Source: a virus. Taken from it: a DNA stretch of 57,742 nucleotides. The translations under genes and the position numbers were made by a program. Positions within the stretch are counted from its first letter, which is position 1, and the number at the start of each line of letters is the position of its first letter. Shown piece after piece: positions 4,131-57,741 of this stretch. The notes beneath the pieces are model-generated. The model was not told where the DNA came from. It searched no databases and saw nothing but the letters and a program-made list of their open reading frames with translations. The stretch lies in the IMG/VR virus record IMGVR_UViG_2616645027_000001; one strand, given 5' to 3'.

Positions 4131-4345
4131 TGTGGATATTATTGATGATAGCTTATTTTGCTATGGGAATTAAAGTTGCACTTGATTTTAACAAGACGGA
4201 CGACCCTGCACTTGACTGCCCTGTAAATAGAGCAGGTTTATTTATAATCCATATAGTTCTTGGCCCCATTGTATGGTTGATTGAGTCACCGACTTTAAAC
4301 CTTTTTAGCAGAATCGGAAAGTATTTGGAAAAGATAAGTAAATAA
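4130..4345 (+). CDS. Small membrane protein, 71 aa
   Basis: TAATG coupling and two hydrophobic spans. Confidence 0.5.
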   Translation: MWILLMIAYFAMGIKVALDFNKTDDPALDCPVNRAGLFIIHIVLGPIVWLIESPTLNLFSRIGKYLEKISK

Positions 4346-4360
4346 AACAGGAGAGAACTA

Positions 4361-4609
4361 ATGCCCACACCATTAAGATACTACACTAATATGACCGAAG
4401 CAGAAGCGTTGAATAACCTTATCGAAGACGCCGGACTAGATTTACAAGAGGCACGGTTAGTCAAAGAAAAGTTGCATTCCATCAGCATAGAAAAAGCTAC
4501 GGATATGGAACAAGTCATTGAAGCCATTGAAGTCATTGAAGACATGGGGCACGCTATATTATGCTTACATGATAGAATAGATGAAGCAAAATATATCCTA
4601 GGTAATTAA
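4361..4609 (+). CDS. Hypothetical acidic protein, 82 aa
   Basis: Track ORF with a GGAGAG SD. Confidence 0.5.
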   Translation: MPTPLRYYTNMTEAEALNNLIEDAGLDLQEARLVKEKLHSISIEKATDMEQVIEAIEVIEDMGHAILCLHDRIDEAKYILGN

Positions 4610-4611
4610 AC

Positions 4612-4806
4612 ATGGTTGATATAACAAAGTGCTTGAATGAAGATTGTGTGTTAAAGTTGCACTGTTACCGATACACATCCGAGGCCGGAGGCAGGCAGTC
4701 ATATTCCGATTTTAAATATGATAATAATCATGGCTGTGACTATTACTGGCCAACCTTAGATAAAGAAAATAGAGAACGTTTTGAAGATACGGATAACAGT
4801 AAGTGA
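4612..4806 (+). CDS. Small Cys-rich protein, 64 aa
   Basis: Has the pattern KC..(E)DC....C.RY....CDYY, which I recall as recurrent in small phage proteins. Confidence 0.5.
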   Translation: MVDITKCLNEDCVLKLHCYRYTSEAGGRQSYSDFKYDNNHGCDYYWPTLDKENRERFEDTDNSK

Positions 4807-12154: not shown

Positions 12155-13606
12155 ATGACAGAACTTAAATTAAAAACCACTCCGATGGAGCACCAGCAAT
12201 GGAGCTACGACCATTTCAAAGGTAAGAAGTACTTCGGTCTATTCTGGGACCAAGGTACGGGTAAGACCAAAGCACTGCTTGATCACGCTTCTTACGCTTA
12301 CCACAAAGGGGCTATAGACTGCTTGATCGTGATTGCTCCGAACGGAGTACATGCTAACTGGGTAATAGAAGAGATACCTAAGCACGCCTCTGTTAACCAT
12401 ATCGCGATAACCTATTACAATGGTAAAGGTAAAAAGTGGGTGCGTGAGTTCGAAGAGATCGCTGATAAAGATAACCATCGGGATAAGTTAAAGATCATTT
12501 GTTTTCCCACCGAGGGCTTTTCTCGTGCTGTTAAGCAAATAGCGTACCTTGATTATCTACTTAAAACACATCAGTGTATGGGCGTAATCGATGAGGCTGA
12601 CGACTTTTCCAACCCCACTGCGAAGCGCACCAAGTATATGTTAAAGAAGGCATCGGAGTTTGTCGTGCGCCGTATTGCGACGGGTACTCCTATCGACAGT
12701 AAGCCTTTGGCGGCGTGGTCACAGTTGCAGTTCTTGAGTCCGTCAATACTCAAGCAAGATTATTATAGCTTTCGTGCGCGGTATTCGATCATGAAAGATA
12801 AGGTTGTTAAGGTGGGGGCCAAAGAGGTAGTCCAGAAGTTCCCGGTTGGTCATCGAAATCTGGACAAATTAGGGGAGATCATAAAGCAGCACACCGACAG
12901 AGTGTTGAAAGAAGACTGTATTGATCTGCCCGACAAGGTGTACCAAACTGTTCCACTTGAAATGGGACGGGACCAAACGCGGTACTACAATGATATGCTT
13001 GATCGAGCATTCTATGTACTAGAAGATAGTGATGATCTAGTGTACGCTAAGAACGCTCTCGACATGATGGGCAAACTGGCACGTATTACGGGGGGTTTCT
13101 CTGAGCAGGGGGTGCCTACTAAAGAGAACCCTAAACTTAAGTGGCTTGAAACCAACATAGATAAGTACACGGCTACCACTGATGTTATTATCTGGTGCCG
13201 ATACAGAGATGAAATAGATGCGGTAGTTAAAGCTATCGGTGAAGAAAGGTGTGCTGTTATACATGGTGGGGTGGTAGGTGAGGATCGAGAGAAAGAGATT
13301 TTTAGGTTTAAAGAAGATGAGAACTGTAATGTTTTGGTTACTAACAAATGTATGTCTCGCGGGCACACACTTGTCAACGCAACGTACAACATCTACTACA
13401 GCAACAGCTACTCACTTAGAGACCGAAGACAATCGGAAGATCGAACGCACCGTAAAGGTCAAGAGGCCACCTGTTTTTATCTAGACCTAGTGTGCATCGA
13501 TACAATCGATGAAGCCGTGCTACAGGCTCTTAAAGAAAAAAAAGATGTTAGTGATTTAGTACTTGGTGACCCTAAGAAAGCTTGGGTTGAAATGGTTAAA
13601 AAATAA
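12155..13606 (+). CDS. SNF2/DEAD-box-like (SF2) helicase, 483 aa
   Basis: Contains DQGTGKT (Walker A), VIDEADDF (DEAD box) and the C-terminal motif QSEDRTHRKGQ (helicase motif VI). Confidence 0.85.
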   Translation: MTELKLKTTPMEHQQWSYDHFKGKKYFGLFWDQGTGKTKALLDHASYAYHKGAIDCLIVIAPNGVHANWVIEEIPKHASVNHIAITYYNGKGKKWVREFEEIADKDNHRDKLKIICFPTEGFSRAVKQIAYLDYLLKTHQCMGVIDEADDFSNPTAKRTKYMLKKASEFVVRRIATGTPIDSKPLAAWSQLQFLSPSILKQDYYSFRARYSIMKDKVVKVGAKEVVQKFPVGHRNLDKLGEIIKQHTDRVLKEDCIDLPDKVYQTVPLEMGRDQTRYYNDMLDRAFYVLEDSDDLVYAKNALDMMGKLARITGGFSEQGVPTKENPKLKWLETNIDKYTATTDVIIWCRYRDEIDAVVKAIGEERCAVIHGGVVGEDREKEIFRFKEDENCNVLVTNKCMSRGHTLVNATYNIYYSNSYSLRDRRQSEDRTHRKGQEATCFYLDLVCIDTIDEAVLQALKEKKDVSDLVLGDPKKAWVEMVKK

Positions 13607-15053: not shown

Positions 15054-16955
15054 ATGATATTTAAACAAGGCGTGGGCACAGAGCTGTCCACACAAGAAAC
15101 GCTTCCCGATCTACACGGGGCTACCAGATTGTGTGTTGACATAGAGACCTACGATCCTAATTTAAAAAAGACGGGACCTAGTGTACGAACAGGAGGATAT
15201 GTTGCGGGGCTGGGCGTGGGTGCGGAGTTCGAATCTGGTGAGGTGGTGGGGTACTATATCCCTGTAGAACATGAAGGCTATGAGGATGAATGCGAGAACA
15301 AAGAACAGGTAATGGGGTGGCTACAGGACCTGCTCGACAATCCCAACAGAGAAGTGTTGTTTGCAAATGCTTTATATGATCTTGATTACCTGTCTCACCA
15401 ACATCAGGTAAAGGTTCTGGGAAAGATCATTGATGTTCAAGTTGCAGAGCCCTTAATAGATGAGAACGCTAAGTCTTACGCGTTAGGTTCTTTGGCCGAC
15501 AGGTATCTAGGAGAGTCTAAAGTAGATGATGATCTTTATGAATACTGTGCTTCCCAGTTTGGCGGAAGAGCAACAAGAACACAGGCCGGTAACATTTATA
15601 GATGCCCCCCTCACATAGTAGCCAAGTATGGTATCGGTGATGTAACGCTGCCTATCAGAATCTGGGAACGACAACGCGACGAATTATCTAAGCAAGGGTT
15701 ATGGGACGTATTTGATCTAGAGACCGCACTGGTTCCTATGCTTTTGGATATGAAAGCGCGAGGTGTTAGGGTTAACATGGCTAAAGTGGATCAGGTTCAG
15801 TCCCGCGCGGCCCAACGCATGATATCCCTACAGAAAGAGATAGACGAGATGGCGGGAATGCCGATAGCTGTGTATGAGTCCAGCTGTCTTGAAGAAGCGT
15901 ACTTAAAGTTGCACTTGCCCTATGCTCGTACCGAAGCGGGTAATCCGTCTTTTACCGCGGCCGTATTAGAAAATTCTGAGTTTGGCTCTAAAGTTAACGA
16001 GCTTAAGAAAGCAACCAAGATGCATGACGTATTTCTTGATCGCTACATTAATAACTATGTGGTGCGTGATCGGATACACCCGGCTTTTAACCAGCTACGT
16101 GGTGACGAATATGGTACGGTCACAGGACGCTTCTCCAGTAGTTTGCCAAACCTGCAGAACATACCAAACGATAAGCTGATGCGGTCTCTGTACGTGCCCG
16201 AGGATGGCGAAGACTGGTACAAGTTAGATTACTCTTCTGTAGAGTACCGCCTAGCCTTGCACTATGCTAAGGGACCTGCTGCCGATGCGCTAAGAGCGAA
16301 CTACGATGAAGATATCAATTTTGATGCCCATCAATTGACGGCTAACGATATTGGCATAACCCGTAAGCAGGCTAAGACTATTAACTTTGGCCTGATCTAT
16401 GGTATGGGAGTAGGTAAACTTTCAGCATCACTGGGGGTCAATTTAGCTGACGGGAAACAAATTCTGAATCGCTTCCACGACAACGTACCGTTCATGAAAG
16501 AGCTGTTGAATATGGCGATGCGTCGAGCCGAGGAGAAGGGGTTTGTACACACCTTGGCCGGGCGGCGCAGACGGTTCGATCTTTATGAGCCAAGAAAATG
16601 GCAGAAGGGTAAGTTCGCTAAGCCCCATGCTGAAGCGCTACATGAGTACGGCCCTAGCATCAAGCGTGCTTTCACATACAAAGCACTCAATGCCGTTATT
16701 CAGGGGTCCGCCGCTGATGTCATGAAGAAAGCGATGGTTGATATCTATCAATCAGGTGTTTGTGACGTGGTGGGAGTGCCCATGTTAACAGTTCACGATG
16801 AATTAGACTTCAGCGCGAACCAAAGTAACGAACATATCGAAGCGATGCGCGAGGTAAAACATCTTATGGAAACAGCTTTTACAACAAGAGTGCCTTTAAT
16901 TGTGGACGCCGAACGTGGTCCAAGTTGGGGAGAAATTGAGGAGATTAGTTTATGA
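15054..16955 (+). CDS. Family A DNA polymerase with 3'-5' exonuclease domain, 633 aa
   Basis: Exo motifs are DIET, NALYDLDYL and YGIGDV. Pol motif A is DYSSVEYRLA, motif B RKQAKTINFGLIYGMG, motif C TVHDEL. Confidence 0.9.
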   Translation: MIFKQGVGTELSTQETLPDLHGATRLCVDIETYDPNLKKTGPSVRTGGYVAGLGVGAEFESGEVVGYYIPVEHEGYEDECENKEQVMGWLQDLLDNPNREVLFANALYDLDYLSHQHQVKVLGKIIDVQVAEPLIDENAKSYALGSLADRYLGESKVDDDLYEYCASQFGGRATRTQAGNIYRCPPHIVAKYGIGDVTLPIRIWERQRDELSKQGLWDVFDLETALVPMLLDMKARGVRVNMAKVDQVQSRAAQRMISLQKEIDEMAGMPIAVYESSCLEEAYLKLHLPYARTEAGNPSFTAAVLENSEFGSKVNELKKATKMHDVFLDRYINNYVVRDRIHPAFNQLRGDEYGTVTGRFSSSLPNLQNIPNDKLMRSLYVPEDGEDWYKLDYSSVEYRLALHYAKGPAADALRANYDEDINFDAHQLTANDIGITRKQAKTINFGLIYGMGVGKLSASLGVNLADGKQILNRFHDNVPFMKELLNMAMRRAEEKGFVHTLAGRRRRFDLYEPRKWQKGKFAKPHAEALHEYGPSIKRAFTYKALNAVIQGSAADVMKKAMVDIYQSGVCDVVGVPMLTVHDELDFSANQSNEHIEAMREVKHLMETAFTTRVPLIVDAERGPSWGEIEEISL

Positions 16956-39762: not shown

Positions 39763-41094
39763 TTAGTTAGTTTGGTAGCTGTAGAGGACTTCTGTTTCCT
39801 CGTCTAGCTGCTTAGATTGATCTCCTTCACCGGAAGTGATCGTATTACGAATCTCTGCATCTTCAGCCGTCATTTCTGCAATTACTGCAGCGGCTAAATC
39901 AGCAGGTGATTCGAAATTTGCTTCGACGCGAGCAACTTGCTCGGCGGTCATTTCCGCAGCAGTCAACTTGCCGCGTAACTGTTGTAACTTGTCCAAAGAA
40001 GCTGTAACAGTTTCGACAGAAGCTTGGTTTTTAACAAACCCTGCAACGTGATTAATGGCGTCCATTTTTTCACACAGTTCTGTAATAGCAACTGCGTCAA
40101 AAGAAGATGCTTCCGAAGTAGGTTGCTCATCCTTTACAACGGCCTCCTTTTGTACAACAGAATCTTCTGCTACTTGTTTGGTATCCTTTGCTTCCATAGA
40201 AGCGCCAGAAGGTGCTACAACACCTTTATCTGTTTCTTTACTCATTGTCTCAATAACCTCGTTAAATGACATAGTTTCATCCGCTAAGCCGATCTCTACG
40301 GCTGTCGCGCCTTCGTAAGTCTGGGCCTCGGTTGCCAAGACTGAATCAACAGACATCGAACGAGTTTCAGATACTAGTTCGGCAAATATTTGTCGAGTAG
40401 TATCGATTCGACTCTGAATCTTTTCCTTCACTGGGCCTGACAAGGCTTCAAACGGGTTACCGTCTACCTTGTGCTCGCCTGAGTGAATGAGAGTAACTTT
40501 GATACCCTCTTTTGTTAGTTTCTTAGAATAATCTTGATGCGCCACTAGCACACCAATAGAGCCCACAATACCTGTTTGTGGGACATAGATTTTTTCAGCC
40601 GCTGAAGCGATAGCGTATGCCGCTGAAGTGGCCTGTTCACCAACAAATGCAGCAATGGGTTTTTCGTCACGAGAGGCAGCTACTAATCGACAAAGATCAA
40701 AGCAACCTGCTACTTCCCCGCCCGGCGAATCAATATCTAAGACAATTGACTGTACGTTAGGGTCGTCCAATGCTTGGGAAAACATGGTCAGTATTCCGTT
40801 GTACCCCTGCATTCCTGAAGCTGTTGGTAGATAAGAGCCCTTATTAACTAAGGCTCCGCTTACAGGGATAACTGCTACCCCATCAAGTATTTGATAGCCC
40901 ACCACTTGTGTTCGCAAGGTTGGGTTTTCCAACGCCTGCTCGGGCGTGATGCCAGTTCCATCAGGCATAGTTATTTGGCCTATTTGTAGCGTGGGGTCTT
41001 GACCCGAAAACGCAGCAACGAATGTTGCTAGATAAGACTCCTCCACTAGCAAGGGCTGGTTAAATAATCTACTGGCTAGGTTTAGATACTTCAT
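39763..41094 (-). CDS. S49 (SppA/lambda gpC-like) prohead protease with C-terminal acidic scaffold-like region
   Basis: Contains LDIDSPGGEVAG, ATSAAYAIASAA and GEHKVDGNPF. I prefer ATG 41094 (MKYLNLASRLFNQPLL) over the track start at 41142. Confidence 0.8.
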   Translation of the reverse strand: MKYLNLASRLFNQPLLVEESYLATFVAAFSGQDPTLQIGQITMPDGTGITPEQALENPTLRTQVVGYQILDGVAVIPVSGALVNKGSYLPTASGMQGYNGILTMFSQALDDPNVQSIVLDIDSPGGEVAGCFDLCRLVAASRDEKPIAAFVGEQATSAAYAIASAAEKIYVPQTGIVGSIGVLVAHQDYSKKLTKEGIKVTLIHSGEHKVDGNPFEALSGPVKEKIQSRIDTTRQIFAELVSETRSMSVDSVLATEAQTYEGATAVEIGLADETMSFNEVIETMSKETDKGVVAPSGASMEAKDTKQVAEDSVVQKEAVVKDEQPTSEASSFDAVAITELCEKMDAINHVAGFVKNQASVETVTASLDKLQQLRGKLTAAEMTAEQVARVEANFESPADLAAAVIAEMTAEDAEIRNTITSGEGDQSKQLDEETEVLYSYQTN

Positions 41095-42568
41095 CTTTAT
41101 CTTTGTCCTCTGAGTTGTTAGTGTCGGAAGGCATTTCCACACCTTTCTCTTTCATCAACTTTTGCTTCTTAGCCATGTGCTCAACATTTTCGTCGAGAAC
41201 TTTATCGGCATCACAGTTGTGTTTACGGGCTTCTTTCTCGTGTGTACTCAAGTCCGTTTCGATTCTTAGAGCCGCAGCCTGCGCGTCTTGTAGCGGGTGG
41301 ACATACGCCCATCCTTGTGGACGCCAATCTACGTCTAAATATTCTGCTCTACGGTTAGCATAGTCTGGCAACTGTAGTCGTCCAGATAGCACACCCGCAT
41401 CCATCCACCAAGCTAACGTACTTTGACATAGCTGTGTGATCAGATAGATTTCTTGAATAGCCTCGATCTCTCTCTGGAAATCATTAAGAATGGCTCTTAA
41501 GATACGGTCATTCACTTCTTTCCAATCCCCGGTAACCAACTCGTAAGGCACGCCAAAAGATGATGAGATAGACATGAGCTGCTGCCGCATGTAATCAGCA
41601 TAAAACTCTCCGCCTTTTTCAGCGTCGAATAAGTTTAGCTTTTCTCCGTCACCAAGTTGTGTGATAACGCCCGCGATAAAATTAACATCTGGTATCTCCA
41701 TATCAGGGTCGAAATGCTCACCTGTTATAGGGTCAATCTGCATACCTCGAGAGTCGTACTTTGCCTCGCGCTCGATAGTACCTGTGAACGAAGCGTGGTT
41801 CTTTTTACGCTCAAGTTCGTAATCATCATAAGCTTCGAGGTTTGCGTTCTTGAACAAAGCCGAAGAGTGTATTGGCATACCGCGAAGTTGACCGGGGCGC
41901 ATAGGAATGTAGTGGTGTACTACGTCCTTTGCCAATATACGAACACGTTGATCTTTTGTTTTAAAATTATTCTGTTCGTCGTCAGGGTGATCTTTAAAGA
42001 AGTGATAGGCTACTCGATCACCTCTTGAGTTTAATTCGATACCCGCTCTAATATAATTACCGTTACTTGTAGTGGTATTGTAGGTTGTATCCAACAAGTC
42101 CGACTCAAGTAATTGTATTTGCATAGGTACACCATTAAACGAACGCGAGGGTCTACGTCTGCGACGTAAAAACACTTCGCCTGATTCGTTACGACCCCGA
42201 CTACCTAATCTTTGGCCGGCATAAAAGTGACCGATTCCGTCACTGTACATATTAGGCAAGCTTTCTTTCCAAGCGTCTGTTAACTGGCCTCTTACATCCT
42301 CATCTTCAACAAGAAAACGACACGTTATACCTGTGCCAATTTCGTGCTTAACAAGTGCCCTAAGAGCGTTACCAATATAAGGACTGTTTCTAACCGCATC
42401 CCTTGCGCGGTTTCTTACCTTTGCTAATTCTGGCGTTACAGCCGAATTGGGGCCTGCAGCTTTTCCTGACATAACAGTAGAACGCTTACCGCGACTAGCT
42501 GCCGTGTTATGGGTGGTTCTCGCTGTTTGACGCAAAGGAAACCCATGAATGTCTAAAATTGCTGTCAT
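41069..42568 (-). CDS. Portal protein, lambda gpB family, 499 aa
   Basis: Synteny TerL-W-portal-protease. RNRARDAVRNSPYIGNALRALVKHEIGTGI is portal-like. Confidence 0.8.
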   Translation of the reverse strand: MTAILDIHGFPLRQTARTTHNTAASRGKRSTVMSGKAAGPNSAVTPELAKVRNRARDAVRNSPYIGNALRALVKHEIGTGITCRFLVEDEDVRGQLTDAWKESLPNMYSDGIGHFYAGQRLGSRGRNESGEVFLRRRRRPSRSFNGVPMQIQLLESDLLDTTYNTTTSNGNYIRAGIELNSRGDRVAYHFFKDHPDDEQNNFKTKDQRVRILAKDVVHHYIPMRPGQLRGMPIHSSALFKNANLEAYDDYELERKKNHASFTGTIEREAKYDSRGMQIDPITGEHFDPDMEIPDVNFIAGVITQLGDGEKLNLFDAEKGGEFYADYMRQQLMSISSSFGVPYELVTGDWKEVNDRILRAILNDFQREIEAIQEIYLITQLCQSTLAWWMDAGVLSGRLQLPDYANRRAEYLDVDWRPQGWAYVHPLQDAQAAALRIETDLSTHEKEARKHNCDADKVLDENVEHMAKKQKLMKEKGVEMPSDTNNSEDKDKDEVSKPSQ

Positions 42569-42571
42569 TGT

Positions 42572-42802
42572 TTATAGTCCCTGATCAACACAAAGTCTAA
42601 AACTATTGCGTTCTCGTTTACCCTTTCCGTTGTTCTCATTAAGCGCTTTAATAGTACGCTGCTCAATACGAAGCATCTCATCCAAGTCTCGATAAACAAC
42701 CAGCCTATCTTGGTGCTTAGACTTAAGTTCCCCCGAAACAATGGCCTGTTGTAGTATCCGCAGGTCTTCTATTGTATAAAAGCAAAAATTAGCGACCGGC
42801 AT
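42572..42802 (-). CDS. gpW-like head-tail joining protein, 76 aa
   Basis: Size and position between TerL and the portal gene. Confidence 0.5.
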   Translation of the reverse strand: MPVANFCFYTIEDLRILQQAIVSGELKSKHQDRLVVYRDLDEMLRIEQRTIKALNENNGKGKRERNSFRLCVDQGL

Positions 42803-44855
42803 TATGTACCCTCCTATAAGGACGTTTTTTCACCTCGCGGCGCTGGCCGGACGTAACAACATTACTATTTTTATCAAGTTCTGCAGCCCACAAAGGGGGC
42901 CTCTGCCAATTGATATCGTGTCCACCTAAGTGGTGCCATATCGCTAACACATAAACAAACAGGTCGAGTGTTTCGTTAGCCTTTCCTCGTATTTGTTCCC
43001 ACCCGTGAGGCTCCCTTATCTCCGAGTTTAGTAACTCTTCGTAATGAAAATCTTTATAGTACTTGGGGAACTGCACATAACCCCAACCATCAAAATCTCT
43101 TTCAAGTTGACCCATTATGTCGTCTTTAAAACGATCAGTGTTTACCATTAACACAGGCACGTCACCTGTACTAGATACGTTTCGGCCCGCCTGCTTTCTA
43201 CTATCAGGCCAGCTTAGCGAAACCTTGTCGGCATTTTCTTTAATCTTTTTCTTAACCGAGTCTCCGCCCATACCACGGATGAGGTAACACTTTCTTTGTA
43301 GTTGGGGCTCCAGTGTACGATACCAATTAAGAGCATTATCGTAAACACCGGGCTCTCCCCCACAATCCACTACAAGGTAGTGGTTCATTAATTCTTTTCC
43401 GCCCGGTAGCTTAAAAGTAGCGTTTATTTTCGCGTTTAACTGCTCCCAGTCTTCTTCATAAACAGCAGGCTGTATTCTGTCAGTGGTACCGTTTCGATCT
43501 ACTTCTTTAAGTGCATACCTGTCCATAGCCCACATACGGTTCTCGATTCCCATTCCGATAACACAGAATTCAAAGCGAGAGTTCTTACCACCCTGTACGT
43601 CAACACTAGTAAGGATAGTCCTTACCCCATCAGGCACACTAAACCTTTCTACGTCCAAGGCTCTTTCTTTTAGGAGATCATAGTTAGCTGCCTTAGCACG
43701 CCTAGATTTAGGTATGTAAGGATAAACAAACTCTTGGTTGTAACAGTTCTTTAACGCTTCTTCGTCACCAGAACGAAGGTACTGATCTTCCGCTCGGGCA
43801 TAGGTCAGTGCTATTTCGTACCAACTGTTGAAAGATGCGAACCACCCCGCGCACCAAAAACTGGCACGCCTAGACTTTCGTCCTTCTCCACTAATAACAC
43901 CTTGGCTGTCTATGGTCTGACCTTCTTTTAGCCACACTGCTGTAGCTCGAAAAGCTCTTTCATGCTCCAAGGTAATGTGTCCTTCGCAATTATCGCAAAC
44001 TAAAGCGATTTGTTCGGCTCGCTCCTCTACGCTATCTGCCTCTGGCATATACATAGACTCATCAGGGTTAGGCGAAGGCTTAAAATATTCATCACAGTGC
44101 GGACACTGTGCATATACCATGCGTCGATCTCCTGTGTTGTAGAGACCTAGTATACCTTTAGTAGGAGGAGCCTCGTGAGGCGCATCCTGAGAGGCTACCC
44201 ACTTAGGGTCCTCAACTTCTTTTGAGGGGGTACTTTCTACCGCACACATGGCTTTACTCATGTAAGTAGTAGTACGCTTTTTCATCTGGTCAAAACCAGA
44301 ACCTTCTCCACCAACATCGTCAGGCCACCGATCATAATCGGTGCCAAGCATAAACCCAATGGGCTTACCTGCAAGTTGGTTTCGACTAGGCCAGCCTACG
44401 TTAAGGAGCTGACCAGACTTAAATTTCTTTCTAAATACCGTATCGCTCGTGCGGCCCGGTAACAACAAGTCTCTTAGCTTAGGAGAGTTGTTAAGCATTC
44501 GGTCAAGTCTTCTAACAGAGAAGTCATTGGCCGACGCCATATCTTTTTCAATAATCATTGCGTCCATCGGGTCAGCAACAATTTTATGCGCGGCACCATT
44601 CAAGATCACCGACTGTGTTTTTCCGTTCTGTACGCCAGCAGCAAGTATCACGCTATCAAAATATCTCGACGTTAGGCAATCCGCAGGCTCTGCCATCAAG
44701 GGAGCTAGATGAGGGGGATAATACCCTGTGTAAGCCTCATCTTTAAGATAAACATACTCGGCCGCACACTCAGTTACCGTAAGGCGCTTGGGTGGGCGTA
44801 CGATGTCTACTGTCGGCAACAACGTTGCCTTTGTTGAAGCAAAGTTATCCATCAA
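42789..44855 (-). CDS. Terminase large subunit, GpA family, 688 aa
   Basis: Walker A-like AAGVQNGKTQ, Cys cluster CPHCDEYF...CDNCEGH, plus size and synteny. Confidence 0.85.
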   Translation of the reverse strand: MMDNFASTKATLLPTVDIVRPPKRLTVTECAAEYVYLKDEAYTGYYPPHLAPLMAEPADCLTSRYFDSVILAAGVQNGKTQSVILNGAAHKIVADPMDAMIIEKDMASANDFSVRRLDRMLNNSPKLRDLLLPGRTSDTVFRKKFKSGQLLNVGWPSRNQLAGKPIGFMLGTDYDRWPDDVGGEGSGFDQMKKRTTTYMSKAMCAVESTPSKEVEDPKWVASQDAPHEAPPTKGILGLYNTGDRRMVYAQCPHCDEYFKPSPNPDESMYMPEADSVEERAEQIALVCDNCEGHITLEHERAFRATAVWLKEGQTIDSQGVISGEGRKSRRASFWCAGWFASFNSWYEIALTYARAEDQYLRSGDEEALKNCYNQEFVYPYIPKSRRAKAANYDLLKERALDVERFSVPDGVRTILTSVDVQGGKNSRFEFCVIGMGIENRMWAMDRYALKEVDRNGTTDRIQPAVYEEDWEQLNAKINATFKLPGGKELMNHYLVVDCGGEPGVYDNALNWYRTLEPQLQRKCYLIRGMGGDSVKKKIKENADKVSLSWPDSRKQAGRNVSSTGDVPVLMVNTDRFKDDIMGQLERDFDGWGYVQFPKYYKDFHYEELLNSEIREPHGWEQIRGKANETLDLFVYVLAIWHHLGGHDINWQRPPLWAAELDKNSNVVTSGQRREVKKRPYRRVHNAGR

Positions 44856-45339
44856 TCTGATTATCTTCTACTTCTAAATACTCCTCTAGATTATGAGCTA
44901 AAGACTGCCTAGCATCATCAATGGAGCCAAGGAAAACTTTTAGTTGGTCGGCTTGCAGCCCAACTTCATGTTCTATTCTATCGGGTAAGGTGTCTAATGC
45001 GAAAACAACAATCTTAAAGGCCTCTGCAACAACCTCTCGAACCTCGGTTACCGGGATAAGTTCTCTCAAAGAGCTTTCGTAGGTCAAACGCTTGTTCTGT
45101 GCGTCGTACCAATCTTTGGCATCCTTTGGGTCCATCTTAGTAGGGTCTGTCTCACCACTCTCAGAGTTCTCAACGCCCCAAGAAGGCATAGCACTCAGTG
45201 CTACAGCAGCGGTTTTGAATGAATACTCTTCTCTTGTATCTGACTTCTTATCGGGGGCGTACTTTCCCAAGTATTTTTTTAACGTACGTCTGTCGACGCC
45301 TGTAAGCTCCGACAATTTATTTATTGAAAAGGTTTCCAT
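44845..45339 (-). CDS. Terminase small subunit candidate (N-terminal HTH), 164 aa
   Basis: INKLSELTGVDRRTLKKYL looks like an HTH. It overlaps the TerL start. Confidence 0.55.
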   Translation of the reverse strand: METFSINKLSELTGVDRRTLKKYLGKYAPDKKSDTREEYSFKTAAVALSAMPSWGVENSESGETDPTKMDPKDAKDWYDAQNKRLTYESSLRELIPVTEVREVVAEAFKIVVFALDTLPDRIEHEVGLQADQLKVFLGSIDDARQSLAHNLEEYLEVEDNQIDG

Positions 45340-50790: not shown

Positions 50791-50847
50791 TTAATAAATA
50801 ACCCAGAAGGTTGCGCATTGTTAAGAGGCGTGCCGGGTTTTGTTAAC

Positions 50848-50925
50848 TGGTCTGTCGGGAAGGATTTGAACCTTCGGCAACTCCGTTCCAAACGGAGGAC
50901 TCTGGCCTGACTGAGCTACCAACAG
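50848..50925 (-). tRNA. tRNA-Pro (anticodon UGG), 78 nt with encoded CCA
   Basis: Hand-folded cloverleaf. Acceptor CTGTTGG/CCGACAG (one G-U). D arm GCTC-AGTCAGGCCA-GAGT. Anticodon arm CTCCG-TTTGGAA-CGGAG. Variable loop TTGCC. T arm GAAGG-TTCAAAT-CCTTC. Discriminator A, then CCA. Confidence 0.85.
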
Positions 50926-51192
50926 AGAGATATTGATCAGGCTGGACGTTACCCCAGCTGGTGTTTTTATCAAATGCCGAAAATAACTGCAGGTAGTTAC
51001 CCTATTTCCCATGTTTCGACTAAATGTTAAGAGGCTAATGCTCACGAAGCACCTTACCTACACCCTCACTTTATGAGCGTTCCTACTTTCAACGCCGCTG
51101 ATCAAATTCTTTAATTCTAAGGCAGAGTTTCATCATACCCGTAAATGTGTCGTAGAATACATAGATTTGGCGTCAGAACCCTACGAAACACT

Positions 51193-51221
51193 ATTAAACC
51201 ATACTTTGTTACTTGTGTCAA
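51193..51221 (-). promoter_or_regulatory. Promoter candidate TTGACA-17-TGgTTTAAT (late leader / tRNA promoter)
   Basis: Read directly on the minus strand, about 270 nt upstream of the tRNA. Confidence 0.35.
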
Positions 51222-51712
51222 CACTTTATTTATAAATAATCTTTGCCATAGCTTAAAACTCTTGTATGGGCTGTCGGGGACCCGATAATTTTAGTTCATC
51301 AAGTTTTCGCTTTTACGAAAACGGTCTGTGCCGCTAGTGAACTTGCTAGGAATCCTCGGTGATTCATAACAACTCCACCAATGATCGTTTATTGCTCTGT
51401 CCTGTATCCATTGTGAATTTCCTAAGTAGTAAAACACTACTTTACCATGCCCCGCAATTAAACGCAATGGTTTGTACAATTATTTTATTCCATGTTCTAT
51501 ATTGGAACATTTGCTGCAACATTAATAAACACAATGACTTAGGTGTCGTTCCAAGTGATTGATAGTAAAGGGTCTTTGTGGTGGTACTATGTAAAGTGAG
51601 ATTATAGTGCGAAATCGGGCTCAATCTGCGCCCACGATGCTGGGATAATTCTAGAGACCCCTATGTTTCACGTGGAACATTAACTACTGTATAAATGAAC
51701 AGTATGTTTAGG

Positions 51713-51740
51713 CAGCAAAAAGCCAGCGGTTAAACTGGCT
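51713..51740 (-). terminator. Intrinsic terminator (second of a tandem pair)
   Basis: On the minus strand: AGCCAG-8 nt-CTGGCT followed by TTTTGCTG. Confidence 0.45.
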
Positions 51741-51765
51741 GGTGCTACGTGTGTTGTGTACAGGC

Positions 51766-51793
51766 AATAAAAAGCCCGGTTGTTATCCGGGCT
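51766..51793 (-). terminator. Intrinsic terminator ending the minus-strand early arm
   Basis: On the minus strand: AGCCCGG-ATAACAA-CCGGGCT followed by TTTTATT. Confidence 0.6.
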
Positions 51794-51824
51794 GTGTCTT
51801 ATTACTTGTTGTACTGTCTGTTAT

Positions 51825-51938
51825 CTACTCGCTGTTACGTCCTCCTAGTATCGCTATGATTACCCATAAGATACCCATGATTATGCCTGTTAGTATATTA
51901 TCTATGTTACCGCCTTTTTGTTTATCTATATTACGCAT
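51825..51938 (-). CDS. Hydrophobic peptide, 37 aa (below track cutoff)
   Basis: MRNIDKQKGGNIDNILTGIIMGILWVIIAILGGRNSE. Weak SD. The terminator follows. Confidence 0.3.
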   Translation of the reverse strand: MRNIDKQKGGNIDNILTGIIMGILWVIIAILGGRNSE

Positions 51939-51971
51939 TGTATAATCCCAATTTGTTTTATCGTTTTGCTT

Positions 51972-53654: not shown

Positions 53655-53855
53655 TTATTTAAACCTCTTTTTTATACCAGTCCAGAATAAAACAGCTCGT
53701 TCGTATTTACGTTTTAAACGGTGTAATTCTTCTAGCTCAGCTAGTGTTGTGTTAACCACGCCTTTAGAGCTATAAAGCTTTATTCGTTCGTTTGTGCGAT
53801 CAAGTAAAAATAATTTGCTTTCTAGCTTCTCGTTTATTTGTTTTTGTAAAGTCAT
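53655..53855 (-). CDS. Hypothetical protein, 66 aa (track alternative GTG 53906)
   Basis: ATG 53855 avoids overlap with the upstream gene. Confidence 0.45.
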   Translation of the reverse strand: MTLQKQINEKLESKLFLLDRTNERIKLYSSKGVVNTTLAELEELHRLKRKYERAVLFWTGIKKRFK

Positions 53856-53884
53856 TACTTTATACCGTTTAATATATTGATTTA

Positions 53885-54127
53885 TTAAGTTAGTAGCGGT
53901 ACACACTCGCCTGTCATAAAAAAATGCATTCTTTGCGCTATCGTAAAATTATGGTCATGTAAACCGTTTTCTATTTCCTCAGCTAAAGTTATTTGTTTTT
54001 TAACATATTCTAGTTTCTTTTCATGCGTTACATGCTCGGCAAAGCCAAAATCAGGGGATAACGCTTCAGCGGCGCACTTTCTATTTATTTTAGCTGCAAA
54101 TATTCTAGCTTCTTGTAGTGTTTTCAT
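53885..54127 (-). CDS. Hypothetical protein, 80 aa
   Basis: Track ORF. Confidence 0.5.
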   Translation of the reverse strand: MKTLQEARIFAAKINRKCAAEALSPDFGFAEHVTHEKKLEYVKKQITLAEEIENGLHDHNFTIAQRMHFFMTGECVPLLT

Positions 54128-54128
54128 T

Positions 54129-54308
54129 TTAGTTTACTTCCTTTAACCATTTAGTTATTAACAACTTTGCAGCACGCTCATTAGTAACTTGTTGATGTTT
54201 AAACACACCGTCCCCATTGAATGTCGCAGTAACGACAGAACCATTAGGAGTATTATGCCCATGATAGTATTGTCCTTTATATTGTTTTGTATAAAAAGAA
54301 TTATTCAT
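54129..54308 (-). CDS. Small protein, 59 aa (below track cutoff)
   Basis: AGGTGAG SD. MNNSFYTKQYKGQYYHGHNTPNGS.... First gene downstream of the consensus promoter. Confidence 0.5.
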   Translation of the reverse strand: MNNSFYTKQYKGQYYHGHNTPNGSVVTATFNGDGVFKHQQVTNERAAKLLITKWLKEVN

Positions 54309-54351
54309 TTTTACTCACCTGTTTACTACTTGATTTATTTAACTCGAATAA

Positions 54352-54380
54352 ATTATAAGTTTACTGCGATACCTTGTCAA
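54352..54380 (-). promoter_or_regulatory. Perfect consensus sigma70 promoter TTGACA-17-TATAAT
   Basis: Read directly on the minus strand, 32 nt from the iteron array and 44 nt upstream of ATG 54308. Confidence 0.7.
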
Positions 54381-54412
54381 ATGTTTTTAACAAATTATTT
54401 TAAATACTTTTA

Positions 54413-54624
54413 TCTACATTTGGCCGATCTTTTATCTACATTTGGCCGATCTTTTATCTACATTTGGCCGATCTTTTATCTACATATCTACATTTGGCCG
54501 ATCTTTTATCTACATTTGGCCGATCTTTTATCTACATTTGGCCGATCTTTTATCCGATCTTTTATCCGATCTTTTATCCGATCTTTTATCCGATCTTTTA
54601 TCCGATCTTTTATCCGATCTTTTA
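54413..54624. repeat. Iteron array: 6 x 22-bp (TCTACATTTGGCCGATCTTTTA) then 6 x 12-bp (TCCGATCTTTTA), 12 GATC sites
   Basis: Counted directly. One 8-nt partial unit lies at 54479-54486. GATC spacing is 22, 22, 30, 22, 22, then 12 six times. Confidence 0.95.
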
Positions 54625-54658
54625 TTCGGTTTGTTAACGACTATAATAAGGCACAGAT

Positions 54659-54732
54659 ACAAGTTGCATTTTGGTGTGGGGCTACGGATACAAGTTGCAC
54701 TCTGGCCGATAAAACAACTACATAAGTTGCAT
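54659..54732 (+). promoter_or_regulatory. Three phased copies of the motif ACAAGTTGCA(T/C) (candidate operator)
   Basis: Copies at 54659-54669, 54690-54700 and 54722-54732 (ATAAGTTGCAT), spaced 31 and 32 nt. More copies lie at 6853, 55053 and 56288. Confidence 0.5.
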
Positions 54733-54740
54733 TTTGTACG

Positions 54741-54778
54741 GACAACAAAAATCCCCGCAGGACTAACCATACGGGGAT
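54741..54778 (-). terminator. Intrinsic terminator after the Q-like gene
   Basis: On the minus strand: ATCCCCG-14 nt-CGGGGAT followed by TTTTTGTTGT. Confidence 0.55.
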
Positions 54779-54850
54779 CACAGGAGCTAAACAAAAAATG
54801 AAAATAAAACGTTGGCTAATCAAACCAACAAACATAGTCTAACAAAACTA

Positions 54851-55270
54851 TTATTCGTTGTCAAGTTCTTTTGAAAGCATGAGAGATAAAATGTCTTTGG
54901 TAGTGGATAACATTTTCCTATGAGCGTTATAAGTGCGGCCAGACGAAGCCAACCAGCGTGTACGAACGTCGTTTCTGTCTTTACGTCTTACTACATACTC
55001 AATTAGTATTGTCTCTCTTTGTAAAACAGGCAAGGACTTCACGGCATTATCTACAAGTTGCATTTTTGCATCGTGCCCGGTAAGGTCGATCATTGGGGTA
55101 GGCTCATGATACATAGTTGTCTCGGTATTATTATTTTTAACTAACTCCCCTAACCAAGATTTTATACCGAGTTGTTTTAACTGCCCTCTGTTTTCATGAA
55201 ATACCCAATCAGCCCATTGGTTTAAATATTCTGCTACGCTGGCTCTTCCGGCCCTAGAATTTATTAGCAT
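54851..55270 (-). CDS. Regulator candidate: Q-type antiterminator-like / sigma70 region-4-like, 139 aa
   Basis: The N-terminal EYLNQWADWV and C-terminal LPVLQRETILIEYVVRR resemble the phage Q (PF06530-type) pattern as recalled from memory. Confidence 0.35.
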   Translation of the reverse strand: MLINSRAGRASVAEYLNQWADWVFHENRGQLKQLGIKSWLGELVKNNNTETTMYHEPTPMIDLTGHDAKMQLVDNAVKSLPVLQRETILIEYVVRRKDRNDVRTRWLASSGRTYNAHRKMLSTTKDILSLMLSKELDNE

Positions 55271-55504
55271 TTAACGTCCGAGGTCTTTGATTTCAGTTGA
55301 AGTTAGATGACGATACCCCTTAAAGGTATCTGACGACCTAATAGTAATGTTATCTACATGTATACCTGTACTCTCATAGAACTCATCTAACAAGTCACCT
55401 ATGTTTGAATCCAATTCCTTTTTCAATCTACGCACCGTACGAATCGAAATTAAATCTTTCGGTTTTTCTTTTTGAATTTCCGTTTTTGAATTTTGGTTTT
55501 TCAT
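55271..55504 (-). CDS. Hypothetical protein, 77 aa
   Basis: Track ORF abutting its neighbours. Confidence 0.5.
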   Translation of the reverse strand: MKNQNSKTEIQKEKPKDLISIRTVRRLKKELDSNIGDLLDEFYESTGIHVDNITIRSSDTFKGYRHLTSTEIKDLGR

Positions 55505-56247
55505 AATTGGTTTTTGAATTTTGGTCCTTCGAGTTCGAAATTAAATGTGGTTATCGGTGTGTTTTCAAAGCGGTCATCTAAAACCACCTCTTTTTCCTGC
55601 TCGTGAACAAGGTAAGGTAGATCGTTTCCTTCGGGAAATACTTCTACATAATGGAGTAGCATTTGTAAGTTGCACACAAACGCTGCCCAATGTGGCTGGC
55701 CACTCTCATCGTCAATAGTCTGACCATTTTCGGCTATCTCCAAGTAATGCCTAGCAGCACACCCAATAGGGATCGACCATTTCATTCCTTTTACCCAATT
55801 CCAGCGTGTGTACTTAACGGACTCCCCAAATTCCCAAAGTCGAACAACGGGTTCGAAAACAAAACCTGAAACCCCATTCTCTTTATTGTATTCCACAACG
55901 TAGTCATAGACATGCTGAATCGCTTCAACCAAATGGACTTTATTTCCGGATAGTTGGAACTCACCTAGTTCGTGAAAAGCACCGCTAAGTAAGTTATCAA
56001 CATTTTCAATATAAGGGTAATCGGATAACAACATCAAACTGTAATCAGGTTTGCCACTATTAAAGCGAGCGCCGGACCCGATCTGATCAGAAGTTAAATC
56101 ACCCACATTATCCTTTTTCGAAAACTCACCTGTCTCTTTCGCGATTTTTACTTCAGCCGCTTGTTCAGGTGTCAAAGAAATGTCTTGACAAACCTCGCGT
56201 TCGTCAAGAGCCCCTCCAGTAAGAGGATCAATATTCTTGTTAATCAT
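55501..56247 (-). CDS. MazG-like all-alpha NTP pyrophosphohydrolase, dATP/dGTP diphosphohydrolase (MazZ/DUF5664)-like, 248 aa
   Basis: FNSGKPDYSLM...KYTRWNWVKGMKWSIPIGCAARHYLEIAENGQTIDDESGQPHWAAFVCNLQMLL fits the family pattern as recalled from memory. Confidence 0.45.
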   Translation of the reverse strand: MINKNIDPLTGGALDEREVCQDISLTPEQAAEVKIAKETGEFSKKDNVGDLTSDQIGSGARFNSGKPDYSLMLLSDYPYIENVDNLLSGAFHELGEFQLSGNKVHLVEAIQHVYDYVVEYNKENGVSGFVFEPVVRLWEFGESVKYTRWNWVKGMKWSIPIGCAARHYLEIAENGQTIDDESGQPHWAAFVCNLQMLLHYVEVFPEGNDLPYLVHEQEKEVVLDDRFENTPITTFNFELEGPKFKNQL

Positions 56248-56279
56248 TATATATGACCGTTAAATTGTTAACAGCCATT

Positions 56280-56308
56280 ATTGTAATACAAATTGCATTT
56301 CAGTGCAA
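56280..56308 (-). promoter_or_regulatory. Sigma70 promoter TTGCAC-17-TACAAT for the minus-strand early arm
   Basis: Read directly. Its spacer contains the ACAAATTGCAT motif (56288-56298). Confidence 0.55.
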
Positions 56309-56333
56309 CAACCTGTTATTTTAATAGACATTT

Positions 56334-56741
56334 GTACAGTACACTTTCTACAAACAAAACGTACTCTACTTTCCTTAATGATTTCAAGTACTTAGTGGCG
56401 TGCTTTAAAAAAGTACACTTTCCAAAAAAGTAACGTACTCTGTTTTGTACTTTTGTTTCCTCAATGATTTCAAGTACTTACAAGTAAAAAGTACGAAAAA
56501 GTACACTAAAAAGTACAAAACTCGATTCAGAAAACTTTTGAGAGTTTTCTAAAAACACTCTGTGAGATTTTATAGGGTATCTTATTATATATATTTTTAT
56601 AAAGTTTAAAAATAGAATATAAAGTGTACTTTTGTACTTTCTGTCCTAACAACTTGATTTTAAACACAAAAACAGAGTACAAAACACAGTACGTTTTAAT
56701 CCGACGAAAGTGTACTTTGTACTGTAATGGACAGTATGTAC
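56334..56741. repeat. GTAC-saturated control region (18 GTAC here, plus one at 56961), mostly as AAAGTAC(A)/GTACTTT
   Basis: Counted directly. Includes a phased triplet at 56491/56501/56513 and a 22-nt direct repeat at 56373-56394 and 56459-56480 (21/22 identical). Confidence 0.85.
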
Positions 56742-56933
56742 ACTAATTCCTTCACAATCATTAACTTTCTGCAAGAAAGGCCATTCATGAAACTTATACA
56801 CGTTTACAATATGTCTAGTATTTATAATGGACATTCGTGGTATAAGTAATGTTTAATAGTATGATAAATCATATAGATAATATTATTACGGTTATTAAAT
56901 TTGGAAATACCGACATCTATTTTGGAAATAAAG

Positions 56934-56962
56934 TTGCTTTTGTAGGTCATTTAATGTAAAGT
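56934..56962 (+). promoter_or_regulatory. Candidate plus-strand early promoter TTGCTT-17-TAAAGT
   Basis: Read directly, about 40 nt upstream of ATG 57002. A weak -10. Confidence 0.25.
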
Positions 56963-57001
56963 ACTGTTTTACTAATTAATCAAAACGTAGGAGTTTTCAG
57001 A

Positions 57002-57076
57002 ATGAAACCAATTGACTTATCAGTTAAAAGACTTAAAGATTTAGAGGCCTGCCAAGAAGGTATCGATTTGGTATGA
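57002..57076 (+). CDS. Leader ORF, 24 aa (MKPIDLSVKRLKDLEACQEGIDLV)
   Basis: GGAG SD. ATGA overlap with the YD-repeat gene start. Confidence 0.35.
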   Translation: MKPIDLSVKRLKDLEACQEGIDLV

Positions 57077-57741
57077 GTGACCGGGTCATTGTTAATGTGG
57101 AAGGGGACTATAATGGTTTTATCGGTTGGAATCTTGAAAGCCAAGGGATAGCATTTACTTACGATGAAAACGGGAACATGTTAACCTACACTTATCCCGG
57201 TGGTAATGCTTATTCTTGCATTTACGATGAAAACGGAAACATGTTAACAGAGACTCATCCCGGCGGTGATGTTTATTCTTACACTTACGATGAAAACGGG
57301 AACAGGTTAACAGCGACTCCTCCCGGTGGTGATGTTTATTCCTACACTTACGATGAAAACGGAAACATGTTAACAGCGACTTATTCGAAGGATGAAACAG
57401 TTTCTTACACTTACGATGAAAACGGGAATAGGTTAACAGAGACTTATCCTAGTGGTGAGGTTGTTTCTTGGACTTACGATGAAAACGGGAACATGTTAAC
57501 CTACACTTATCCCGATGGTAGGACAGTTTCTTACACTTACGATGAAAACGGGAATAAGTTAACAGAGACTTATCCTAGTGGTGAGGTTGTTTCTTGGACT
57601 TACGATGAAAACGGGAATGTGCTAACCTACACTTATCCTAATGGTAGGACAGTTTCTTGGACCTACAAATGGGCCGACAAAAACACGTTCGTTATTACAA
57701 AGGACGGGGATCAAATTTTAAAAGCGGAGTTTTCAGAATGA
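57073..57741 (+). CDS. Minimal YD-repeat (Rhs-repeat family) protein, 222 aa
   Basis: Eight 21-aa repeats with core Y-x-YDENGN-x-LT. No signal peptide and no toxin or core domain. Confidence 0.8.
   Translation: MSDRVIVNVEGDYNGFIGWNLESQGIAFTYDENGNMLTYTYPGGNAYSCIYDENGNMLTETHPGGDVYSYTYDENGNRLTATPPGGDVYSYTYDENGNMLTATYSKDETVSYTYDENGNRLTETYPSGEVVSWTYDENGNMLTYTYPDGRTVSYTYDENGNKLTETYPSGEVVSWTYDENGNVLTYTYPNGRTVSWTYKWADKNTFVITKDGDQILKAEFSE

Follow-up and report, generated by a model that had tools for sequence, protein, structure and literature searches.

A two-tier tandem-repeat array in an uncultured marine phage as a possible recent amplification of a promoter-upstream element

The virus record IMGVR_UViG_2616645027_000001, a stretch of 57,742 nucleotides that we refer to as the window, belongs to an uncultured marine phage, and 212 bp of it (positions 54413-54624) consist of two tiers of perfect tandem repeats. 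We put the probability at about one half that this array is the product of a very recent, lineage-specific amplification of a short element upstream of the adjacent sigma-70 promoter, that it affects this promoter in cis, and that it is not a replication origin. This reading draws on the position of the array, on a homologous two-copy site in a related phage (locus L004), on the signs of its recency and on its predicted curvature; an effect on transcription and a factor that binds the units are what we infer. A first-pass annotation of the same DNA had proposed replication-origin or copy-control iterons, with an upstream element of the adjacent promoter as its fallback, and it is the fallback that the conserved layout of the locus, the core shared with L004 and the curvature favor.

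Structure of the repeat array

Sequence reading (positions 53900-55200), Tandem Repeats Finder (TRF), exact-match counting and repeat finding agree on the architecture of the array, and the layout given in the first-pass annotation (six 22-bp units, an 8-nt partial unit, six 12-bp units and 12 cores) held to the base: three 22-bp units are followed by the partial unit, three further 22-bp units and six 12-bp units. The long unit, TCTACATTTGGCCGATCTTTTA (TAAAAGATCGGCCAAATGTAGA when read on the minus strand, which is the gene strand), starts at positions 54413, 54435, 54457, 54487, 54509 and 54531, and the short unit, TCCGATCTTTTA, which equals the long unit minus CTACATTTGG, at positions 54553, 54565, 54577, 54589, 54601 and 54613. 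All copies in the array are 100% identical, the core CCGATCTTTTAT occurs 12 times, and perfect repeats of this length cannot have originated by chance. A degenerate 13th unit, TTCGGTTTGTTA, which shares 8 of its 12 bases with the short unit, abuts the array. The partial unit TCTACATA can equally be read as a tandem duplication of ATCTACAT (two copies) or, according to TRF, as the end of a 74-bp higher-order unit present in 1.9 copies; the same program finds tandem duplication nested at three levels, with periods of 8, 12 and 22/74 bp. The units stand head-to-tail and have no unique spacers, in agreement with the earlier statement that the array is not a CRISPR. We also rejected a coding function, as the open reading frames (ORFs) that cross the array (88, 119 and 178 amino acids, aa) extend through antisense genes, the promoter or the terminator and have no conserved counterparts.

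A search of IMG/VR with the repeat unit returned 0 matches, and among 50,697 GenBank phages neither the near nor the distant search mode yielded a nucleotide match to the array region. In 596 Gb of genomes, the sole match to tandem CCGATCTTTTAT lies at positions 1925-1975 of an alphaproteobacterial metagenome-assembled genome (JADHOM010000023.1; L075), where three to four imperfect 12-bp units form a KRSD-type repeat, apparently in a coding region; we judged this match to be a coincidence.

Repeats in related phages

Relatives were found through homologues (a handful) of the 139-aa protein encoded upstream of the array, and their contigs were fetched; loci are designated by L numbers, and 75 were fetched in all. 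Seven lineages were distinguished: the window with L001; L002, L003 and L042 (a 59-kb contig); L004; L005-7 and L009; L008 and L010; L011, L012 and L050; and L013, L014 and L064. The last two have only 37-40% identity in the 139-aa protein. On the gene strand, most lineages share one order, in which a 248-aa protein, a ~77-aa protein and the 139-aa protein are followed by a terminator, three to four copies of AAAGTGCAACTT(G)YATCTGTGG, a second repeat set, one or more sigma-70 promoters and, finally, small genes that are not common to the lineages. L008 and L010 are the exception, with no terminator and a AAAGTGCAACTT cluster that starts ~35 nt after the 139-aa gene.

The second repeat set varies with the lineage. 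It comprises four copies of ATT(G/C)ATTTGGTGAATG (also listed as four copies of ATTGATTTGGTGAATG) in L005-7 and L011-14, four to five copies of GAGAATGATTCTC in L008 and L010, and possibly two GGCC(C)AAA remnants in L002. In L004 it consists of two adjacent copies of ATCGGCCAA, the core of the window array as read on the gene strand, at 4464 and 4476 (plus strand), which occupy the homologous place in the same orientation, ~20 nt upstream of the first -35 hexamer (TTGACG). As ATCGGCCAA occurs among the 75 fetched loci only as this L004 pair and once elsewhere in L002, the window array would appear to be an amplification of a site that L004 holds in two copies. The comparison of repeat number among relatives that the first-pass annotation had proposed gives two core copies in L004 and none, or a possible remnant, in L002; the contig of L001 breaks inside the array.

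Neighboring repeats vary as well. The 32-bp AAAGTGCAACTT unit is present in four copies in L010 vs. three in its 94%-identical relative L008, and the number of copies in a (TAAC)n tract that immediately precedes the first small gene is 20 in L011, five in L013, L014 and L064, and no fewer than 14 in L012, where the contig ends inside the tract. Together with the perfect identity of the window units, this variation indicates that the array is recent and was probably produced by replication slippage or unequal recombination. The (TAAC)n microsatellite itself gives stop codons in all three frames and lies just upstream of the ribosome-binding site of the small early gene. Two further leads on repeats were dropped. 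A pattern scan of IMG/VR for paired AGTGCAACTT yielded 59 loci, of which only L042, L050 and L064 encode the 139-aa protein and the rest are unrelated; the repeats of L008 match Fur boxes at only 13-14 of 19 positions, a level that is common in AT-rich DNA, and we do not claim them as such.

The only other strain that carries the array is represented by contig LBB22012_10009752 (L001; JGI sample 3300002035), which is 99.03% identical to the window over 2.9 kb. Its 12 mismatches (plus 2 gaps) mark it as independent, and since it has the same distal flank and four short units before breaking off within the array, both the repeat and its distal junction must be real. The worry of the first-pass annotation about an assembly artefact is thereby settled for the repeat and this junction, and it stands for the copy number and the two-tier order, which come from a single assembly. 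There is, in our view, a very slim chance that collapse or expansion of a de Bruijn graph around a real repeat generated the two-tier structure or the copy number. The end of L001 after four short units, the termination, on the promoter side, of the L074 contig (sample 3300002042) at 70 bp from the array, and the perfect sub-blocks of 66, 66 and 72 bp, which are below common maximal k-mers and hence of a size that assemblers can traverse, fit such an origin. However, assemblers do not invent repeat units, L001 repeats both unit and junction independently, and the long-to-short junction and the 8-nt partial unit are specific sequences for which supporting reads would be required.

Promoter and intergenic region

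The array lies in a non-coding gap of 542 nt (54309-54850; ~540 nt in the first-pass annotation) and ends 32 nt upstream of a minus-strand promoter, TTGACA-17-TATAAT, that matches the sigma-70 consensus at 12 of 12 positions, as had been noted before. It is the only 12/12 match in the 3.1 kb scanned (53800-56900), and L002 has a homologous promoter. The 32 nt between the array and the -35 hexamer contain three G/C (~9% GC), and both the position and the composition of this stretch appear to fit an upstream promoter (UP) element, judging from the known UP-element consensus. The promoter is predicted to drive the 59-aa gene and the hypervariable small genes downstream. The downstream ORFs of 59, 80, 83 and 175 aa have no family match and are not conserved in the relatives, and exact-protein look-ups for the 80-aa and 175-aa neighbors returned nothing. 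On its other side, the array is flanked by three RTGCAACTTR sites and an intrinsic terminator, again in line with the earlier description; the terminator hairpin is kept in relatives via compensatory changes, and a promoter scan detected no promoter between terminator and array. The surroundings of the array are, throughout, transcriptional machinery.

Curvature was calculated as the ratio of end-to-end distance to contour length with a scripted Bolshoy-Trifonov wedge model. The 200 bp from position 54376, i.e., the A/T tract and the 22-bp tier, have a ratio of 0.353 vs. a window mean of 0.932 (standard deviation 0.047), which is the lowest in the window and is due to T-tracts that recur approximately every 11 bp in the long unit. 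Among the relatives, L005 and L008 have the most curved 100 bp of their locus in the homologous gap, and in L002 and L004 this gap falls within the top 1-3%. The phased A/T tracts directly upstream of a core promoter by which curved-DNA elements are recognized are found in the 22-bp tier and not in the 12-bp tier.

These features suggest how an upstream element of this kind could work. The 22-bp units would serve as binding sites for a phage or host factor that recognizes ATCGGCCAA, and the T-tracts, phased at ~11 bp, would impose a static bend from about -68 to -200. Bend and bound factor could then modulate the recruitment of RNA polymerase at a promoter that already matches the consensus and has an UP-like tract. 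The array may furthermore determine how far the AAAGTGCAACTT cluster lies from the promoter, and in which helical phase; the two are ~290 bp apart in the window vs. 80-100 bp in L002 and L004. The 12-bp tier is perhaps a slippage by-product that adds spacing and GATC sites and lacks half of the conserved core.

Several observations weigh against this role. No helix-turn-helix or ribbon-helix-helix family was detected in the flanking small proteins, and a promoter that matches the consensus at 12/12 positions and has an UP-like tract is hardly in need of activation. As the CCAA part of the core shared with L004 is missing from the short units, half of the array may offer no binding site. That the L004 site is homologous was deduced from its position and the 9-mer and not from a full alignment. 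The 12-bp tier, with ratios of 0.94-0.98, is not curved and is out of helical phase, and no curvature of the gap was seen in L011 and L013; moreover, the curvature values stem from one dinucleotide model, in which a repeat scores as curved whenever its period is close to a multiple of the helical repeat. Finally, a neutral transient expansion would account just as well for units that are perfectly identical.

In its probable working, the array is closest to upstream curved-DNA or UP-type elements and to copy-variable repeats between regulator sites and promoters. It shares with the former the position directly upstream of the -35 hexamer and A/T tract, the T-tracts at intervals of ~11 bp and the most curved DNA of the window, but it differs from them in being composed of perfect tandem units, in reaching to about -280, in its uncurved 12-bp tier and in having a core, ATCGGCCAA, in common with L004. 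In contingency repeats such as the TAAA tract upstream of Neisseria nadA, copy number changes the spacing between a regulator site and the promoter. Like these, the array is a perfect tandem repeat between conserved regulator sites and a promoter, and neighboring repeats vary in related phages; unlike these, its units are 12 and 22 bp long instead of 1-7 bp, its setting is a phage, and one full-length copy of it is known. Promoter-upstream tandem repeats are a known kind of element, and the two-tier form is unusual. If the array does modulate the promoter, it would be a clear example from nature of a phage that alters the control of its early genes through amplification of a cis-element and not through a change of protein, and it would provide a handle on mutation dynamics in this uncultured marine phage group.

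Alternative explanations

The array could instead be a neutral minisatellite, i.e., a transient expansion by slippage or unequal crossover in a repeat-prone intergenic region that has no function and is tolerated. We consider this unlikely, if by no means negligible. The complete identity of the units and the nested periods of 8, 12 and 22/74 bp indicate repeated recent slippage, relatives manage with zero to two copies, the phage group has other unstable repeats ((TAAC)5-20 and the 32-bp unit in three or four copies), and the unit is absent from the other collections searched. However, every relative keeps repeated sites at exactly the position of the array, directly upstream of the main promoter; L004 has the same core at its homologous place, and a second strain (99% identical) keeps the distal part. 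In addition, 200 extra bp of strongly curved DNA at -68 to -280 would be unlikely to be transcriptionally silent. Replication-origin or copy-control iterons, for which the named models were P1 oriR/incA, P4 ori/crr and oriC, are a distinctly doubtful alternative. The units would be bound by a phage initiator (the Prim-Pol/SF3 protein or another), the 32-nt A/T tract would unwind, and methylation of GATC would time initiation. As in the P1 and P4 loci, there are many GATC sites and direct repeats of ~20 bp (iteron sets have several of ~17-22 bp; here six of 22 bp and six of 12 bp) next to an A/T-rich neighbor of ~9% GC. Large non-coding regions number only three, of which the gap is one; there is a loose likeness between the unit GATCTTTTATCTA and the oriC 13-mer GATCTnTTnTTTT; and the Prim-Pol plus SF3 (DUF5906/VapE-like) protein on which the first-pass annotation relied is real and has a P4-alpha-like architecture. 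Yet this candidate initiator does not adjoin the repeats: its gene is ~13 kb away on the circular map and has no adjoining non-coding DNA, and the helicase has no detectable similarity to the origin-binding domain of P4 alpha, so that its proposed role as binder of the array is not supported. To our knowledge, iteron sets do not consist of perfectly identical copies, and the identity of the units is in this respect atypical. Nor is the array conserved in presence or position among relatives that share the replication and regulatory modules (L004 has two cores, others have different repeats), and the A/T tract could be accounted for by its UP-element position. The neighboring, conserved AAAGTGCAACTT direct repeats could be the true iterons, and the 825-bp gap described below, with its inverted repeats, AT-rich core, GC-skew minimum and conservation at the DNA level, is a better candidate for an origin. 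Taken together, these points leave the origin or copy-control assignment of the first-pass annotation poorly supported.

DnaA boxes bear on the same question. No TTATNCACA box was found near the array; each long unit starts with the 9-mer TTATCTACA, one mismatch from the box, which gives six copies in the array. Further exact copies at 55047-55055 and 55350-55358 (plus strand), inside the 139-aa and 77-aa genes, are on the same strand as those of the array and were not seen in relatives. The 9-mer might be taken as favoring an origin, but L004 and the other relatives have conserved neither it nor GATC. We rejected titration of DnaA on the same grounds and because the window-wide count of the 9-mer is not above chance.

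The 12 GATC sites of the array (54426 to 54616) are spaced by 22, 22, 30, 22 and 22 bp, then six times by 12 bp, at a density ~18-fold above the window average. SeqA binds hemimethylated GATC pairs whose spacing, within restricted values, puts them on approximately one face of the helix, and its binding to clusters is cooperative (PMC2691817); the 12-, 22- and 30-bp spacings of the array agree with this preference. In a Dam+ SeqA+ gammaproteobacterial host, hemimethylated sites at about one and two helical turns would form a high-affinity platform for SeqA, by which the adjacent promoter would be sequestered or silenced after the start of replication, or SeqA titrated. LexA boxes of the CTGT-N8-ACAG type in the window and relatives, which point to a gamma- or betaproteobacterial host, are compatible with this scenario, as is the general likeness to the GATC cluster of oriC in density, spacing and the loose 13-mer match. 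It is nevertheless very unlikely. In the whole window, 186 GATC sites in 57.7 kb vs. ~217 expected from composition are neither an enrichment nor an avoidance, and 12 sites follow automatically from the amplification of a single unit. The two L004 sites, AATCGGCCAA and GATCGGCCAA, contain one GATC and one AATC, and the possible L002 remnants contain none, so that the GATC sites, unlike those of oriC, are unconserved at the homologous sites, and an array of DnaA boxes is missing. No Dam methylase was found among the ~60 phage proteins scanned. On this and the lack of conservation in L004, the functional Dam sites of the first-pass annotation are not supported. With an equally small likelihood, the sites could form a replication-coupled switch, in which infecting DNA that Dam methylated in the previous host fires the early promoter and the hemimethylated GATC sites, one to two helical turns from each other on strongly curved DNA, recruit a SeqA filament after the first round, shutting off or insulating the promoter. 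Slippage of the 12- and 22-bp units would then tune the threshold, like a "contingency locus" of the phage.

Tandem direct repeats directly upstream of a promoter are also found in the centromeres R1 parC and pBtoxis tubC, and P1 pac contains clustered GATC repeats. It is highly improbable that the array is such a partition site (parC/tubC type) or a packaging or segregation signal (an accessory of pac or cos, like the GATC hexamers of P1 pac). The likeness to R1 parC, pSK41 parC and pBtoxis/c-st tubC lies in 11- to 22-bp tandem repeats directly upstream of a promoter and, for pac, in the clustered GATC repeats. The difference is that no partition NTPase or recognizable centromere-binding protein follows: the downstream genes are hypervariable small ORFs without family match that are not common to relatives, neither ParA, ParM, TubZ, integrase nor protelomerase was detected among the scanned proteins, and nothing points to a plasmid-prophage lifestyle. 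Relatives lack the array, and since the large terminase subunit (TerL) is lambda gpA/Chi-like and the DUF1441 small subunit (TerS) is ~9 kb away, cos would be expected next to TerS. Least credible of all is an RNA-level element, in which minus-strand transcripts that pass the terminator, or that start in the AAAGTGCAACTT region, would include the array as a leader with repeated protein-binding sites. Six copies of AUCGGAUAAAAG would offer GGA and A-rich motifs for proteins of the CsrA or Hfq type, the 12-nt tier provides six evenly spaced GGA motifs, and genes from 56247 down to 17585 are all on the minus strand, so that read-through transcripts would contain the array. Against this stand the strong, conserved terminator upstream, the missing promoter between terminator and array, and the lack of conservation of the array in relatives; neither the RNA (z = -1.6) nor the single-stranded DNA (z = -0.6) of the array has significant structure, and the RNA has no Rfam match. 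More generally, a conspicuous GATC-rich array should not be annotated as an origin when comparative data show it to be lineage-specific.

Conserved elements of the locus

The 139-aa protein belongs to a very small family (six representatives among 1.8 billion), and no Pfam, PHROG or PDB sequence match was found. A first structure model from five sequences was unusable (predicted local distance difference test score, pLDDT, 42), and an AlphaFold model from 10 sequences reached a pLDDT of 74, with ~90 over residues 63-138. A Foldseek comparison of this model with the PDB gave no statistically significant match; its top ranks are nevertheless dominated by the -35-binding region 4 of the extracytoplasmic function (ECF) sigma factor sigma-L (3hug, target TM score 0.72-0.75) and other sigma factors, and the Q21 antiterminator (6p18_Q) is weakly similar (query TM score 0.58, also non-significant). 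Among viral models, the best matches (E = 4e-3 to 0.1) belong to small phage proteins whose annotations name sigma factors of the sigma-70 family or ECF type, or regulators or activators of transcription. With moderate strength, these likenesses suggest a small sigma-region-4-like transcription factor, and the resemblance to sigma region 4, phage sigma factors and activators, and Q21 is why we regard the region as one of transcriptional control.

The 139-aa protein is a candidate binder of the AAAGTGCAACTT sites, three to four direct copies of which always stand just after its gene, beyond the terminator in all but the L008/L010 lineage. The element is a short palindrome, AAAGT-GCA-ACTTT, and is for that reason read as a binding site; it is kept even in distant lineages (37% protein identity), and the cluster is probably the target of a conserved phage transcription factor. 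The window has three copies of the site, a degenerate ATCGGCCAGA between them (54701-54711) and an extra copy at 56289 (minus strand). An ECF-type -35 element or single-block promoter was rejected as a reading of AAAGTGCAACTT, for which no conserved -10 element exists at a fixed distance; the phage has no RNA polymerase. Inside the last codons of the 139-aa gene lies a further promoter, TTGACA-17-TAGACT with a TG (54836-54864, minus strand), that four lineages have kept. Downstream of it come ~95 nt with three hairpins (z = -4.5) and then the strong terminator, down to 54743. The layout resembles Q-pR'-tR', but only the terminator hairpin is conserved in structure here, and a small RNA between the 139-aa gene and the terminator was rejected on the same evidence.

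The 825-bp divergent gap at 56248-57072, 1.7 kb from the array, has the lowest GC content of any gap (28.7%) and sits at the minimum of the cumulative GC skew. It carries seven of the ten AAAGTACA motifs in the window, in both orientations, invariant GTAC repeats in inverted sets (AGTACAAGAGTAC / GTACTCT), and an inverted CAAGGGCTTAG / GTAAGTCCTTGA pair around an AT-rich core, TTTATAAAATATATAATA...TATAG. It aligns at the DNA level across all lineages, including the distant ones. Because non-coding DNA is conserved here where proteins are only 37-45% identical, this gap is the best candidate for the key cis-element of the family, which might be either the origin or a master bidirectional control region; the array region has no comparable conservation. 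The GTAC-repeat and AT-rich gap and the AAAGTGCAACTT cluster are accordingly the places in which to seek an origin or a master switch. Arguably, the sigma-like 139-aa factor with its sites, the GTAC/AT-rich region and the LexA boxes in a phage without lysogeny genes are more informative than the array itself.

Table 1 Features of the array, its surroundings and the genome (positions refer to the window unless a locus is named)
Feature	Position	Strand	Basis or remark
22-bp tier, block A (three identical TCTACATTTGGCCGATCTTTTA units)	54413..54478		sequence reading, TRF, exact counting, repeat finding
8-nt partial unit TCTACATA	54479..54486		sequence reading, TRF
22-bp tier, block B (three identical units)	54487..54552		sequence reading, TRF, exact counting, repeat finding
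12-bp tier (six identical TCCGATCTTTTA units)	54553..54624		sequence reading, TRF, exact counting, repeat finding
Degenerate 13th unit TTCGGTTTGTTA	54625..54636		distal edge of array; read directly
A/T-rich stretch, UP-like	54381..54412	-	sequence reading and UP-element consensus
Sigma-70 promoter TTGACA-17-TATAAT	54352..54380	-	promoter scan; homologous promoter in L002
59-aa gene	54129..54308	-	first gene downstream of promoter; good Shine-Dalgarno; no family match
AAAGTGCAACTT(G) palindromic site, three copies	54660, 54691, 54723 (54660..54732)	-	
Intrinsic terminator of conserved three-gene operon	54743..54779	-	approximate limits
139-aa protein	54851..55270	-	small rare family, all-helical; C-terminal half resembles sigma region 4
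AAAGTGCAACTT clusters in relatives	L002 5513-5566; L004 4351-4420; L005 5513-5581; L010 788-884; L011 6493-6572; L013 6207-6288		
Gap equivalent to 56248-57072 in relatives	L002 3404-3961; L004 2260-2836; L005 3338-3920; L011 about 4290-4760		
(TAAC)n tracts	L011 7197-7276; L012 6121-6179; L013 6598-6617		
Prim-Pol plus SF3 helicase	9738-11861	+	
SNF2 helicase	12155-13606	+	
Family-A DNA polymerase with exonuclease domain	15054-16955	+	
Pam3 gp33/gp34-like proteins	plus-strand arm	+	
Portal	41069-42568	-	
TerL, lambda gpA/Chi-like	42789-44855	-	
TerS, DUF1441	44845-45339	-	

Genome context

The window looks like the complete ~58-kb genome of a siphovirus-type phage, with plus-strand genes from 57073 through the window end on to 17389 and the minus-strand genes noted above. 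No close cultured relative and no prophage relatives in genomes were found, and the ~60 proteins scanned include no integrase, partition NTPase or recognizable repressor.

LexA boxes (CTGT-N8-ACAG; TACTGT-N8-ACAG) are located in early regulatory regions, at 51685-51703 of the window, at 5809 in L005, at 1195 and 3492 in L008 and at 6729 in L011; all three of these relatives have such boxes in the gap equivalent to that of the array. Besides the gamma- or betaproteobacterial host, they suggest an input of the SOS response into early transcription, and they occur in a phage group in which neither integrase nor repressor was detected. The 248-aa protein (55501-56247, minus strand), the first gene of the conserved three-gene operon, has an N-terminal dATP/dGTP diphosphohydrolase domain (PF18909, E = 9e-15) and possibly functions in the nucleotide pool or in DNA modification. 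A tRNA-Pro(TGG) in the region 50801-50925 (minus strand) is directly followed by a match to the Rfam "abiF RNA" (43.9 bits; gathering threshold 37), and ~1 kb of non-coding DNA with two terminators lies upstream (50926-51971). The first gene of the plus-strand early arm (57073-57741, plus strand) encodes a 222-aa protein that consists almost wholly of RHS/YD repeats (eight repeats; DNA period of 63 bp, 7.7 copies), an unusual place for such a protein.

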